A stretch of DNA of 16,129 bases from a virus. The translations under genes were made by a program, and so were the position numbers. Numbering within the stretch: position 1 is the stretch's first letter; each line of letters begins with the position of its first letter. Location of the stretch: the UHGV virus genome UHGV-0120322; one strand, written 5' to 3'. Of this stretch, positions 3,636 through 15,648 are shown piece after piece. The notes beneath the pieces are model-generated. The model made no database searches. It saw nothing but the letters and a program-made list of their open reading frames with translations, and had not been told where the DNA came from.

Positions 3636-4417
3636 GCTGCCACCTTCTGCTCAGTGGCTTTCTGTTTCAGGAATCCAAGAGCTTTCACTGCTTCGGCCTG
3701 TGTCAGTTCTGACGATGCGCGAATGTCGCGGCGAAATATCTGGGAACAGAGCGGCAATAAGTCGTCATCCCATGTTTTATCCAGGGCGATCAGCAGAGTG
3801 TTAATTTCCTGCATGGTTTCATCGTTAACCGGAGTGATGTCGCGTTCCGGCTGACGTTCTGCAGTGTATGCGGTATTTTCGACAATGCGCTCGGCTTCAT
3901 CCTTGTCATAGATACCCGCAAATCCGAAGGCCAGACGGGCACACTGAATCATGGCTTTATGCCGTAACATCCGTTTGGGATGCGACTGCCACGGTCCGGT
4001 GATTTCTCTGCCTTCGCGGGTTTTGAATGGTTCGCGGCGGCATTCATCCATCCACTCGGTAACGCAGATCGGATGATTGCGGTCTTTGCGGTAAATCCGG
4101 CATGTGCAGGATTCGTTGTCCTGTTCAAAGTTCATGCCGTCAAACTGCTGGTTTTCGTTGATGATGCGGGACCAGCCATCAACGCCCACCACCGGAACGA
4201 TGCCGTTCTGCTTATCAGGGAAGGCGTAAATTTCTTTCGTCCACGGATTAAGGCCGTACTGGTTGGCGACGATCAACAATGCGATGAACTGCGCATCGCT
4301 GGCATCACCTTTAAATGCCGTCTGGCGAAGAGTGGTGATCAGTTCCTGTGGGTCGACAGAATCCATGCCGACACGTTCAGCCAGCTTCCCAGCCAGCGTT
4401 GCGAGTGCTGTACTCAT
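3632..4417 (-). CDS. bet: Lambda Bet, Red-beta single-strand annealing protein (261 aa), full length
   Basis: Translation [59 protein letters not shown]... recognised as lambda Bet; ATGA overlap with exo. Confidence 0.97.
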
Positions 4418-4422
4418 CCGTT

Positions 4423-4533
4423 TTATACCTCTGAATCAATATCAACCTGGTGGTGAGCAATGGTTTCAACCATGTACCGGATGTGTTCTGCCATGCGCTC
4501 CTGAAACTCAACATCGTCATCAAACGCACGGGT
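4423..4533 (-). pseudogene. gam: gam fragment: only the C-terminal ~36 codons of lambda Gam ([36 protein letters not shown]) are present
   Basis: C-terminal 36 aa match lambda Gam; the N-terminal 48 aa of the 84-aa ORF (4423..4677) are unrelated and encoded antisense to P; junction at about 4531-4534. Confidence 0.85.
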
Positions 4534-5137
4534 ACAACAGGTAGCGCAGATCATCAATGGTGTGTTCAGCCAGTTACTGGCAACTTTCCCGGCGAGCCTG
4601 GCTAACCGGGACCAGAACGAACTGAACGAAATCCGCCGCCAGTGGGTTCTGGCTTTCCGGGAAAACGGGATCACCACGATGGAACAGGTTAACGCAGGAA
4701 TGCGCGTAGCCCGTCGGCAGAATCGACCATTCCTGCCATCACCCGGGCAGTTTGTTGCCTGGTGCCGGGAAGAAGCATCCGTTACCGCCGGGCTGCCAAA
4801 CGCCAGCGAGCTGGTTGATATGGTTTACGAGTATTGCCGGAAACGTGGCCTGTATCCAGATGCAGAGTCTTATCCGTGGAAATCAAACGCGCACTACTGG
4901 CTGGTTACCAACCTGTATCAGAACATGCGGGCCAATGCGCTGACTGATGCGGAATTACGGCGCAAGGCTGCCGATGAACTGGCCTGTATGACAGCGCGAA
5001 TTAACCGTGGTGAGGCGATACCTGAACCAGTAAAACAACTTCCTGTCATGGGCGGGAGACCGCTTAATCGTGTTCAGGCTCTGGCGAAGATCGCAGAAAT
5101 CAAAGCGAAGTTTGGGCTGAAAGGAGCAAGTGTATGA
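4532..5137 (+). pseudogene. peaD: Replication protein P, 5'-truncated (lacks about the first 30-40 codons and its own start/RBS); equivalent to peaD of DLP12
   Basis: Frame translates as [30 protein letters not shown]...KAKFGLKGASV, matching lambda P from about residue 33 to the C-terminus; no ATG or SD at the 5' end. Confidence 0.9.
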
Positions 5138-5427
5138 CGGGCAAAGAGGCAATTATTCATTACCTGGGGACTCATAAGAACTTCTGTGCGCAGGACGTTG
5201 CCGCGGTAACAGGCGCAACAGTAACCAGCATAAATCAGGCTGCGGCTAAAATGGCGCGGGCAGGAATCTTGGTCATTGATGGTAAGGTCTGGCGAACGGT
5301 GTATTACAGATTCGCTACCAGGGAAGAACGGGAAGGAAAGGTGAGCACTAACCTGATTTTTAAGGAGTGTCGCCAGAGTGCCGCGATGAAGCGGGTGTTG
5401 ATGGTTTGGGGGAGGGTAGGGGTATGA
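5134..5427 (+). CDS. ren: Ren (lambda Ren homolog, 97 aa)
   Basis: MTGKEAIIHYLGTH...VTSINQAAAKMARAG...VWRTVYYRFATREEREGK recognised as lambda Ren; ATGA overlap with P stop. Confidence 0.9.
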   Translation: MTGKEAIIHYLGTHKNFCAQDVAAVTGATVTSINQAAAKMARAGILVIDGKVWRTVYYRFATREEREGKVSTNLIFKECRQSAAMKRVLMVWGRVGV

Positions 5428-5624
5428 GCATGATGGATTTCGCAGAAACTAAAAAGGCTATCGACGCCATCACAACCGACTGGTCTATCCGAGGACCGTA
5501 TCACGAAGACGACGGGAAATATTACGCCTTGCTTCGTGGAGAGTGGGTTGGTGGCGGGTATATCGGAAAACGGAAAGCCCTTGATGCCATTCTCGAAAAG
5601 TTAATCCAGGAGGCCGCCCAATGA
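5424..5624 (+). CDS. Hypothetical small phage protein (66 aa), nin-region equivalent
   Basis: ATG with GGGAGGGTAGGGG upstream, ATGA overlap with ren stop; in frame with ORF-track entry 5367..5624. Confidence 0.55.
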   Translation: MSMMDFAETKKAIDAITTDWSIRGPYHEDDGKYYALLRGEWVGGGYIGKRKALDAILEKLIQEAAQ

Positions 5625-5851
5625 GCAACATCGACAAACCAATGACAAACCGTGAACTGGTGGATGCCGCCATTGAATTGGCCGGAGAGTTTTATGCGAT
5701 GCAGGGCTATTCGCATCGTCCTGGCTTCAAGTATTGGCAATCTCCGCACCCGCATGAGCGCCTGTGCTTTGAAATGGCTTGTGTGGCATTCGAAACCATT
5801 CGCGGCTCAGATGTAATGGACGCCGTATCTGAGTTGGAGGATGAAGAATGA
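5621..5851 (+). CDS. Hypothetical small phage protein (76 aa), N-terminus MSNIDK
   Basis: AGGAGG SD 7 nt upstream, ATGA overlaps on both sides (translational coupling). Confidence 0.55.
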   Translation: MSNIDKPMTNRELVDAAIELAGEFYAMQGYSHRPGFKYWQSPHPHERLCFEMACVAFETIRGSDVMDAVSELEDEE

Positions 5852-5964
5852 GCAACATCGACAAACGCGCATTACGTGAAATCGCTGAGGCAGCAGTTGG
5901 TGCACATGAGCGCCTTAGTGTTATGCCGCCTGATGACATTTTCGATATCTCACTGGCAGAATGA
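5848..5964 (+). CDS. Short ORF (38 aa) with MSNIDK N-terminus; probably the N-terminal part of a larger gene interrupted by in-frame TGA at 5962-5964
   Basis: GGAGG SD 7 nt upstream of ATG; same reading frame as the 5965..6261 ORF, which has no SD or ATG of its own. Confidence 0.4.
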   Translation: MSNIDKRALREIAEAAVGAHERLSVMPPDDIFDISLAE

Positions 5965-5991
5965 ACTCAGCTTGATGCAGATATCACTGCC

Positions 5992-6261
5992 TTGAACGCG
6001 CTGAACTCCGCAGCCAACCCAGCCACAGTGCTGGCGCTGCTGGATGAGCTGGAAGCCAAAGACCAGAGGATTGCTGTGCTGACCGAATCGCTCAAGCAGA
6101 CGGTTTCAGGATACAAATCCTGCCTGCGTACCGGACATGAGCGCATTCTTGACCTTGGCGGTGACTGTGACGCGCCCAAAGTGATGATTGCAGGCAATCC
6201 TGACATTCAGCAGGCGCAGAAGCTGATCGCCGCCGCATCCGGTAAAGGAGAGGCATCATGA
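5992..6261 (+). CDS. Hypothetical phage protein, C-terminal part; frame open from 5965 and contiguous with 5848..5964 across a single TGA
   Basis: ORF-track entry with TTG start and no SD; 3' end overlaps the next gene start (ATGA), so it sits in a translationally coupled chain. Confidence 0.5.
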   Translation: MNALNSAANPATVLALLDELEAKDQRIAVLTESLKQTVSGYKSCLRTGHERILDLGGDCDAPKVMIAGNPDIQQAQKLIAAASGKGEAS

Positions 6262-6821
6262 GCACTATTACCAAACAATGGCTGCAGCAGAAAATTGCCG
6301 ACATGGAAGCAGCCAGAGATGAAATCCCGTTCGGTCTGGACGAAGGCGACAGCAACACGCTGGCGGCACTGCGTATCGCGCTGGCATCGCTCGAAGCGGA
6401 GCCTGCCATTCACCGGTGGCGTCGTGTGACCTCTGAGCCATACGGCCCCTATCCTTGGCATTATGGTGATTTTATCGGCTTCTCAAAGCCCGTTGATGGG
6501 ATTGAGGATGAGTATTTTTACTCCGCCCCGCCAGAGCCAGCCAATGCCGAAACCGTAGCCTGGCTGTGGTCACACAGGAAACACCCGAGCGAAGTCACGC
6601 TTGTTCGCCCTGAAGATGATGAGAGAGCGGAGGGTGCTCACTGGTCTGGCTGGAGTTGTCAGGCGCTTTATGCAGCACCGCCAGTTCCGGTATCTGTGCC
6701 CACATTCGAGAAATGGTGTGAGTTGACTGAGCAGAAACCTGTCGGATGGGTGCGTGATGCTATGAAAGAAGCGTATGACGGATGCCGCGACGCCATGCTT
6801 CAGGGTGCCGAAAAAGCCTAG
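6258..6821 (+). CDS. Hypothetical phage protein (187 aa)
   Basis: AAGGAG SD upstream of ATG; ATGA overlap with upstream ORF; no family recognised. Confidence 0.6.
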   Translation: MSTITKQWLQQKIADMEAARDEIPFGLDEGDSNTLAALRIALASLEAEPAIHRWRRVTSEPYGPYPWHYGDFIGFSKPVDGIEDEYFYSAPPEPANAETVAWLWSHRKHPSEVTLVRPEDDERAEGAHWSGWSCQALYAAPPVPVSVPTFEKWCELTEQKPVGWVRDAMKEAYDGCRDAMLQGAEKA

Positions 6822-6833
6822 TCGCCCACCACC

Positions 6834-7064
6834 ATGCAGACCGCGCCAGCCCTAGATTCTTCGCCAAAAATTTCCGAGTCGCCCGTCAGCAACTCTCCGG
6901 TGATTCCGGATGGTTGGGTGCTGGTTCCTAAGGAGCCAACTCCAGAAATGCGTGAGGCGTACCATCAGGCGCAGGAAGAGTGTGAAGATGGCGGTGGATT
7001 ATGGAGCCCAGACCACCAATGGAAGGCCATGATCGCAGCAGCACCGCAGCAGGAGGCGAAGTGA
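6834..7064 (+). CDS. Hypothetical ORF (76 aa) in the same frame as 6258..6821, separated only by a TAG and four sense codons; possibly a 3' extension of that gene
   Basis: No SD upstream of the ATG; same frame as the preceding gene. Confidence 0.4.
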   Translation: MQTAPALDSSPKISESPVSNSPVIPDGWVLVPKEPTPEMREAYHQAQEECEDGGGLWSPDHQWKAMIAAAPQQEAK

Positions 7065-7115
7065 TTATGTCGTGACAGCATAATTGCGATGTCAACGATA
7101 AGCAGAGGTTTGAAA

Positions 7116-7310
7116 ATGAAATCACAATCACCAGTGCAGCATGAAGTTAACATCGACGGCAAAGAGTATGTTGTCACAGTAGTCCAAACCGGCAAGTCAA
7201 CGTGGAGGGCATGGGGAGATTCCTGGGGGCGCCATATAGTCGAAACAGGTTCTAGCGAACATAGCGCGCTTTCTCATTGGAAAGCAAAAGCTTTAGTTAT
7301 GAATGGGTAG
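7116..7310 (+). CDS. Hypothetical small protein (64 aa), start at MKSQSPVQ
   Basis: GAGGT SD 6 nt upstream of ATG at 7116; the earlier ATG at 7089 has no SD. Confidence 0.5.
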   Translation: MKSQSPVQHEVNIDGKEYVVTVVQTGKSTWRAWGDSWGRHIVETGSSEHSALSHWKAKALVMNG

Positions 7311-7333
7311 CGCGGAAACTTTGAAGGTATAAT

Positions 7334-7359
7334 CCCCTCAAATAATCGAGGGGGTTTTT
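7334..7359 (+). terminator. Hairpin CCCCTC-N8-GAGGGG followed by TTTTT; intrinsic terminator or attenuator immediately abutting the next start codon
   Basis: GC-rich 6-bp stem plus T5 run; a perfect TATAAT hexamer sits at 7328-7333 just upstream; the 3' arm doubles as the only SD-like sequence for the 7360 ATG. Confidence 0.5.
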
Positions 7360-7869
7360 ATGTCTGGTTGGGATAACGGTATAGATGCAGTTTCTGCGAT
7401 TGCAGCTATCGCATCTGCGGTAGCAACTTATTTAGCATGGCGATCCTCAGAAGCTAGCAGGGCCACATCCGAAAAAGCTTTGCAGTTGCAAGGAAAGCAG
7501 TATTTGTACGAGACATTAAAAGCTTGCGCTGAGAGAGCGAATTCATACTCAAAAGGAAAGAAAGGGGCTGACTGGAGCTTTCATGACGCAGCCAATATTG
7601 TTCGATGTTTGAACATGGCAATGGGGAGCATAATAAATTACTCAGATACCAACAATCAGGATGCAATGAAAGGTCTGAAGCAATTCTTTATTAGCCAATT
7701 AAACATGGAGCTTTTTGAAGAGCTCAACTATGAGGTTGGGCCTGATGCCTTCTTTCACGGAGAGGAGCTAACCAGCATGACGAGCGATATTTACTCGCAG
7801 TGGTTAAACATTATTTCATTCTTTAACCTCATGATTGTCACAGATGATGACCTCGCCGATGAAACATAG
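7360..7869 (+). CDS. Hypothetical AT-rich moron protein (169 aa) with an N-terminal hydrophobic helix (IDAVSAIAAIASAVATYLAW)
   Basis: Long ORF with visibly lower GC than the flanking nin genes, its own upstream hairpin and TATAAT; no family recognised. Confidence 0.65.
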   Translation: MSGWDNGIDAVSAIAAIASAVATYLAWRSSEASRATSEKALQLQGKQYLYETLKACAERANSYSKGKKGADWSFHDAANIVRCLNMAMGSIINYSDTNNQDAMKGLKQFFISQLNMELFEELNYEVGPDAFFHGEELTSMTSDIYSQWLNIISFFNLMIVTDDDLADET

Positions 7870-15420: not shown

Positions 15421-15648
15421 ATGGAAGTCAACAAAAAGCAGCTGGCTGACATTTTCGGTGCGAGTATCCGTACCATTCAGAACTGGCAGGAACAGGGAAT
15501 GCCCGTTCTGCGAGGCGGTGGCAAGGGTAATGAGGTGCTTTATGACTCTGCCGCCGTCATAAAATGGTATGCCGAAAGGGATGCTGAAATTGAGAACGAA
15601 AACCCGGCATCTGATGCCGTTAACGATTTGCTGAACACACCAGTGTAA
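15421..15648 (+). pseudogene. Terminase small subunit Nu1, N-terminal ~60 codons only, fused in frame to an unrelated 15-codon tail
   Basis: MEVNKKQLADIFGASIRTIQNWQEQGMPVLRGGGKGNEVLYDSAAVIKWYAERDAEIENE matches lambda Nu1 (winged-helix DNA-binding domain); the remainder NPASDAVNDLLNTPV does not. Confidence 0.85.

Follow-up and report, generated by a model that had tools for sequence, protein, structure and literature searches.

The interrupted frame and its prophage context

The window, that is, the whole stretch of 16,129 nucleotides that was analyzed (UHGV virus genome UHGV-0120322), carries on its rightward strand, in this order, P, ren, two small ORFs and an Ea22-like gene that is broken by a stop codon. 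The frame opens with an ATG at 5848 to 5850 and is closed after 38 codons by an in-frame TGA (5962 to 5964), the next base being A; the same frame then runs on to its natural stop, a TGA at 6259 to 6261. ATGA overlaps are found at all five gene junctions from P through the gene at 6258: the ATG at 5848 overlaps the stop of an upstream 76-aa ORF (ATGA at 5848 to 5851), and the natural stop overlaps the ATG of the next gene at 6258. A first-pass annotation, made from the letters of the sequence, had described the frame from ATG 5848, the TGA at 5962 to 5964, the open frame to 6261 and the ATGA overlap, and all four were confirmed on the sequence. The features to which the text refers are listed here.

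4531 to 4534, no strand: junction of a deletion of about 4.6 kb, placed by blastn against NCTC9112 and 2018-06-4CC, with annotation.
5621 to 5851, plus strand: upstream 76-aa gene, coupled via ATGA; intact here, frameshifted or deleted in many prophages with the GGA allele.
5836 to 5840, plus strand: Shine-Dalgarno sequence GGAGG of the Ea22-like gene, as read from the sequence, 7 nt 5′ of the ATG.
5848 to 5964, plus strand: 5′ fragment of the Ea22-like gene, 38 codons (MSNIDK...SLAE) and the premature TGA.
5933 to 5962, plus strand: speculative promoter-like match, ATGACA-18 nt-(TGg)CAGAAT, the last T of which is the mutant base 5962.
5962 to 5964, plus strand: premature stop TGA, with T5962 in place of the G of the ancestral GGA (Gly39).
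5965 to 6261, plus strand: 3′ remainder of the Ea22-like gene, 98 sense codons and the natural stop, in frame and without a ribosome-binding site of its own.
6245 to 6250, plus strand: AAGGAG, which serves the next gene as its Shine-Dalgarno sequence; it lies within codons K133-G134-E135 of the Ea22-like gene, 7 nt before ATG 6258.
6258 to 7064, plus strand: next gene, 268 aa when intact, here cut by a TAG at 6819 to 6821.

Four in-frame start codons are present downstream of the premature stop (TTG 5992, GTG 6028, GTG 6181 and ATG 6184), and reading of the sequence before each of the four revealed no Shine-Dalgarno sequence. The earlier statement that the downstream part lacks such a sequence therefore stands, while the accompanying statement that it offers only a TTG needs correction. 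The ATGA overlap at 6258 had also been taken as a sign of coupled translation. The next gene has a strong Shine-Dalgarno sequence of its own, so its translation need not depend on coupling, and the overlap, which the intact ancestor already had, does not speak for translation of the downstream part. An open frame of 99 codons past a stop has a chance of about 1 to 3% in random sequence; independently of this figure, whether the two parts constitute one gene is settled by homology at the level of sequence, as described below.

The window begins in a tRNA-Arg, with intD adjoining, as in the NCTC9112 prophage. Compared with the complete prophage of NCTC9112, the 4.6-kb deletion, the flanking aligned segments of which have 4 nt in common at the junction, reaches from the 5′ end of gam across the immunity region and O to roughly codon 32 of P, and what is left of the P gene is the 191-aa ORF at 4562 to 5137. 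With this deletion both early promoters, including pR, are gone. Relative to NCTC9112, a second deletion of ∼5.3 kb has removed the head genes from terminase to protease, with its junction at about 15601 to 15602 of the window. In a megablast search with the whole window, no complete E. coli genome in the collection matched more than 83% of its length. A promoter scan of positions 4200 to 7400 found no convincing promoter ahead of the gene chain, and the chain may not be transcribed at all in this strain. The cryptic lambdoid prophage DLP12 of K-12 carries the nonsense pseudogenes exoD, peaD and renD, and the present element resembles prophages of the DLP12 type in being defective, with large deletions, point-inactivated small genes and a pseudogene label in RefSeq. 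It differs from DLP12-type decay in that the same nonsense allele occurs also in apparently complete prophages; the allele is therefore either older than the decay of the present prophage or unconnected with it.

Family assignment and the ancestral codon

With the stop replaced by Gly, the repaired 137-aa product matches the Pfam family Ead_Ea22 (PF13935) over residues 2 to 100 with 85.5 bits (E = 6.6e-24; the cut-off of the family, its gathering threshold, is 27 bits), and a single domain thus runs across the stop. In E. coli 2018-06-4CC the DNA is 100% identical, and RefSeq lists it there as a pseudogene of an “ead/Ea22-like family protein”, a family name given by PGAP, with the remark “internal stop”; the near-identical DNA of S51, SF-468, KKa014, and fS54a is annotated likewise. 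Other searches contributed little: an NCBIfam scan of the repaired protein and three neighbours identified no family, a PHROGs scan returned families of unknown function only, and a sequence search of the PDB gave nothing meaningful (the best match was a ribose-binding protein, with E = 0.61). An AlphaFold model of the repaired protein, for which 40 homologs were supplied as input, is all-helical with a mean pLDDT of 87.4 and places helices at residues 6 to 24, 28 to 34, 41 to 55, 58 to 102, 110 to 115, and 118 to 132. Residue 39 falls in a low-confidence loop between helices, the mean pLDDT of residues 31 to 40 being 61. According to this model, about 72% of the protein, including its long central helix and its C-terminal part, is lost by truncation at codon 39 of 137, and the 38-aa stub retains only the first two short helices.

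Ea22 proteins begin with a short N-terminal segment, which is followed by a central coiled coil and then by a C-terminal domain that varies, and they are strongly mosaic (PMC10834534, PMC7093339). The repaired protein has the architecture of the family: its N-terminal segment is short, its central helix is long, the C-terminal module is variable and the chain ends in a K/RGE motif. In its conserved N-terminus, helix, variable module and K/RGE end it is like lambda Ea22 and P22 EaD (PF13935/IPR025153). Lambda Ea22 has 182 aa, whereas the present protein has 137 aa and an unrelated C-terminal part, and in the window it is cut at codon 39. The location differs as well: lambda ea22 lies in the exo-xis segment of the early-left region and the present gene is found in the rightward early operon, with ren on one side and the nin genes on the other. 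The exo-xis location is, however, a positional feature of lambda ea22 and not a criterion of PF13935. Lambda and Phi24B Ea22 have been reported as pro-lysogenic (PMC7093339); this activity has been shown for those two proteins only. Taking the domain match and the annotation together, positions 5848 to 6261 are one Ead/Ea22-like gene, belonging to the small, all-helical, mosaic accessory genes of lambdoid phages.

The intact allele WP_029488729.1 (strain G1/2) has the same length of 414 nt and four base differences across the gene, with GGA where the window has TGA. An 82-nt probe centred on this codon had matches in 59 records, drawn from 56 complete E. coli genomes; of these, 11 RefSeq records, representing 10 genomes, were exact matches (the TGA allele) and 48 had one or two mismatches. 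All six of the mismatched records that were fetched carry GGA, and their products of 114, 125, 137, and 180 aa have the same N-terminal module joined to different C-terminal modules. Altogether 13 genes without the TGA were read, two in the isolated phages Louie and mEp213 and 11 in complete E. coli genomes; they have five different C-terminal modules, and every one of the 13 has GGA. Gly39 is kept in all nine aligned homologs, again including Louie and mEp213. The first-pass annotation had expected TGG at this position in homologs, and the codon is instead GGA, for Gly, throughout the 13; it had also considered that homologs might prove to be two consistently separate genes, and every homolog examined is a single continuous gene across the position of the stop. 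Its suggestion of a recent nonsense mutation fared better, and agrees with the one-base difference to GGA, the near-identical TGA haplotypes and the pseudogene flag with internal stop in RefSeq. As judged from these alleles, the lesion is a single G-to-T transversion at 5962 that converts GGA (Gly39) to TGA. Codons 19 to 55 are identical in DNA among all homologs except for this T/G, and dN/dS around the stop is for this reason uninformative.

The C-terminal end of the family was also compared. The terminal GKGE is invariant across homologs with unrelated C-terminal modules, and the K/RGE motif of the Ea22 literature is encoded at 6244 to 6252 by AAAGGAGAG, a sequence that holds the Shine-Dalgarno AAGGAG of the next gene. 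The motif may reflect a conserved ribosome-binding site or a recombination junction rather than a protein function.

Distribution of the TGA allele and the state of the cassette

The TGA allele is found in 10 of the 56 complete E. coli genomes that bear the module. The exact 38-aa stub is present on 398 contigs, and the three commonest intact 137-aa variants are present on 601, 408, and 164 contigs (about 1,200); TGA thus represents roughly a quarter of all gene copies, a proportion that is subject to database sampling bias. Sixteen TGA loci, of which six belong to complete genomes and 10 to further assemblies of isolates or metagenomes, vary among one another at three positions at most over 877 nt (blastn, window positions 5424 to 6300) and comprise two haplotypes (CCCAAA versus CCAGAA at 6177 to 6178) and two singletons. 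Their carriers are varied: the P gene has at least four distinct haplotypes among them, one of which is common to the GGA strain NCTC9112, the repressor/immunity, Q and lysis modules differ, and the carriers come from five countries. The allele is present in several prophage backbones, among them some apparently complete prophages. Near-identical TGA loci combined with varied P, immunity, Q and lysis modules indicate one origin and then spread, and the sequences point to a single, fairly recent origin of the allele, followed by dissemination through recombination of lambdoid prophages and clonal expansion. None of the TGA alleles examined (16 loci) has a further disabling mutation downstream of the stop. 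A clean frame 3′ of the stop is expected for a young lesion, but it is equally what a frame still in use would show.

The surroundings of the gene were compared among eight prophages. A segment of ∼1.3 kb (5278 to 6563), reaching from the 3′ end of ren into the first part of the gene at 6258, hardly varies in the eight, while the adjoining P gene (4558 to 5277) has 58 variable sites and shuffled haplotypes in the same set. The segment looks like a recently spread recombination module.

Lesions are found in the neighbouring genes too. In most GGA-allele prophages the upstream 76-aa gene is independently disrupted, by a +T after 5777 or by an 11-nt deletion at 5633 to 5643 (loci L002, L011, L013, L016, and L017), and the 70-aa product of the +T form is present on 639 contigs versus 743 for the intact 76-aa product; a 6-nt in-frame insertion is a further change in the cassette of sister alleles. 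Both cassette genes are intact in only two of the 13 complete-genome copies read, those of C8 and QDFD216, and at most one of the two (the 76-aa gene or the Ea22-like gene) is disrupted in any copy read. With so small a number of independent events, selection and chance are hard to separate. In the next gene, the TAG at 6819 to 6821 is a second G-to-T nonsense change, the codon being GAG (Glu188) in the intact copies of G1/2, SF-468, and KKa014. Its truncated 187-aa product is present on 60 contigs, compared with more than 350 for the intact 268-aa forms, and RefSeq lists the 187-aa fragment in 2018-06-4CC as a normal CDS. The picture suggested by these sequences is of a cassette of dispensable accessory genes under relaxed selection, or possibly selected against. 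In one GGA-allele prophage (QEC11-421, locus L016), the start codon of the Ea22-like gene is ATA rather than ATG, a difference equivalent to window position 5850, and the gene keeps a normal protein accession in RefSeq.

Interpretation of the UGA codon

The sequence around the stop was examined for signals of recoding. Conservation of the stop among homologs was not found, TGA being limited to one near-identical haplotype and the others having GGA. The predicted RNA fold of 5950 to 6040 is no more stable than that of shuffled sequence (z = −1.04), and a permissive Rfam scan of 5700 to 6400 (E ≤ 10) detected no SECIS element or relevant family, its sole match being a spurious lncRNA. Selenocysteine insertion with a SECIS element, and likewise a stimulatory hairpin, were rejected, as there is no hairpin and no Rfam match and the homologs have Gly rather than Cys or Sec. 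A +1 frameshift at the stop was rejected since that frame closes after 10 codons (TGA at 5993 to 5995). The G-to-T change also creates an ATG at 5961 to 5963, in the −1 frame relative to the gene, and the −1 option was rejected because this ATG opens an ORF of only four codons (M-N-S-A-stop).

The first-pass annotation had proposed, as an alternative to a mutation, a gene expressed by low-level read-through, on the ground that UGA followed by A is a leaky context. Natural E. coli isolates carry the efficient RF2-B variant. Ribosome profiling of RF2-B E. coli indicates that UGAA is rapidly terminated and that UGA read-through products are undetectable, the products of nudL and pheL being seen only with the defective RF2 of K-12 (PMC5373646), so that the argument from context is limited to K-12 at most. 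The read-through proposal gains no positive support from the other results either, the stop being unconserved, RNA structure absent and the ancestral residue Gly; decoding by tRNA-Trp would, by comparison with the homologs, insert Trp at a position that is otherwise always Gly. Some basal near-cognate read-through is certain to take place at a low level, and nothing suggests that it is used. The Qbeta A1 protein is a functional product of UGA read-through in a coliphage. In having an in-frame UGA followed by an open frame, the present locus is like Qbeta A1 and the K-12 nudL and pheL extensions. In those three, however, a functional protein ends naturally at the stop, which is conserved, and read-through appends something extra, whereas in the present gene the UGA has taken the place of a conserved Gly (codon 39 of 137) and no homolog has it; the nudL and pheL cases rest, moreover, on the weak RF2 of K-12.

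We consider it very probable that positions 5848 to 6261 are an Ead/Ea22-like gene inactivated by the change of Gly39 to UGA, and that the change arose once and spread as a neutral or nearly neutral loss. Translation begun at ATG 5848 would end after 38 codons with release of the two-helix stub. The allele would have arisen a single time and then been passed on as clones expanded and lambdoid prophages recombined, the gene being dispensable and its loss neutral or nearly so, and the open 98 downstream codons and the ATGA overlap would persist only owing to the youth of the lesion. We infer that no functional protein is made and that the loss is neutral. The locus is most probably a segregating nonsense pseudogene, and the RefSeq annotation already flags it as a pseudogene.

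It is unlikely that the allele is instead an attenuated one, in which near-cognate decoding by tRNA-Trp or tRNA-Cys would give a little full-length and functional G39W or G39C protein and expression would be lowered rather than abolished. No stop of E. coli is leakier than UGA, and natural read-through at nudL and pheL in K-12 speaks for such an arrangement, as do the open frame 3′ of the stop in 16 of 16 TGA loci and the commonness of the allele, and Trp or Cys might be tolerated at residue 39, given the low-confidence loop (pLDDT 61). These points are set against the confinement of the stop to one near-identical haplotype, with GGA in every other homolog and an invariant Gly39, the lack of a stimulatory structure, and the rapid termination at UGAA, with undetectable products, in RF2-B strains; in the window, moreover, the gene lies in a prophage that has lost pR. 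Quite unlikely, too, is a selected mutation, whether because the lysogen or the phage gains from losing the Ea22-like protein or because the G-to-T change makes an internal sigma-70 promoter (5933 to 5962) for the downstream genes. The frequency of the allele and its presence in several prophage backbones would fit selection, as would three independent common disruptive alleles (the TGA, the +T after 5777 and the 11-nt deletion) in the cassette at 5621 to 6261, the survival of both genes in so few copies, and the near-equal counts of the +T product and its intact form. But the events number only three, mutual exclusivity is expected on a star-like genealogy, and clonal outbreaks dominate public databases. 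As for the promoter, the mutant T is position 6 of the sole promoter-like match in 4200 to 7400, with a −35-like ATGACA 18 nt upstream of a −10-like CAGAAT that has an extended TG; this −10 element matches at only four of six positions, and one match is below the 2.2 expected by chance in the scanned interval. That the UGA allele is a selected regulatory variant of either kind, supplying a trickle of read-through Ea22-like protein or an internal promoter for downstream early genes, is improbable. Such a variant would, if real, explain the frequency of about a quarter and the presence in several otherwise complete prophages, and it would fit the independent disruption of the adjoining 76-aa gene in most remaining copies.

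Very unlikely is an arrangement of two genes, a 38-aa peptide and a C-terminal protein initiated or reinitiated at TTG 5992 or GTG 6028. Gene callers do emit ORFs of 89 and 77 aa from these two codons, but neither has a Shine-Dalgarno sequence, the homologs are continuous and one Pfam domain spans the stop. The C-terminal domain of lambda Ea22 alone, furthermore, fails to reproduce the function of the full-length protein (PMC10834534). A sequencing or assembly error, or selenocysteine at the UGA, has practically no probability left: beyond the in-frame TGA itself nothing speaks for either, the ancestral residue is Gly, no SECIS-like hairpin or Rfam match is present, and the identical base occurs in more than 20 independent assemblies (10 complete genomes, with 11 RefSeq records, and 10 further isolate or metagenome assemblies), by which the error raised in the first-pass annotation is excluded and both ideas are refuted. 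Against the neutral loss of an Ead/Ea22-like gene speak the frequency of the stub and its presence in apparently complete prophages, which leave some room for a selective advantage or for a residual function through basal read-through.

The 38-aa, 77-aa and 89-aa “hypothetical proteins” that hundreds of assemblies list at this locus all derive, as fragments, from a single Ead/Ea22-like gene. The TGA locus is a natural knock-out, and the GGA sister alleles in near-identical modules could be used with it for testing the ren-proximal Ea22-like variant. Common disruptive alleles in three adjacent small genes are a modest pointer to a cassette that lysogens can do without, or that is even selected against in them.

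A 19-nt direct repeat, ATGAGCAACATCGACAAAC, is present at 5621 to 5639 and at 5848 to 5866, where it forms the first codons (MSNIDK) of two adjacent genes that are otherwise unrelated. This repeat is likely a hot spot for module shuffling of the Ea22-like family.
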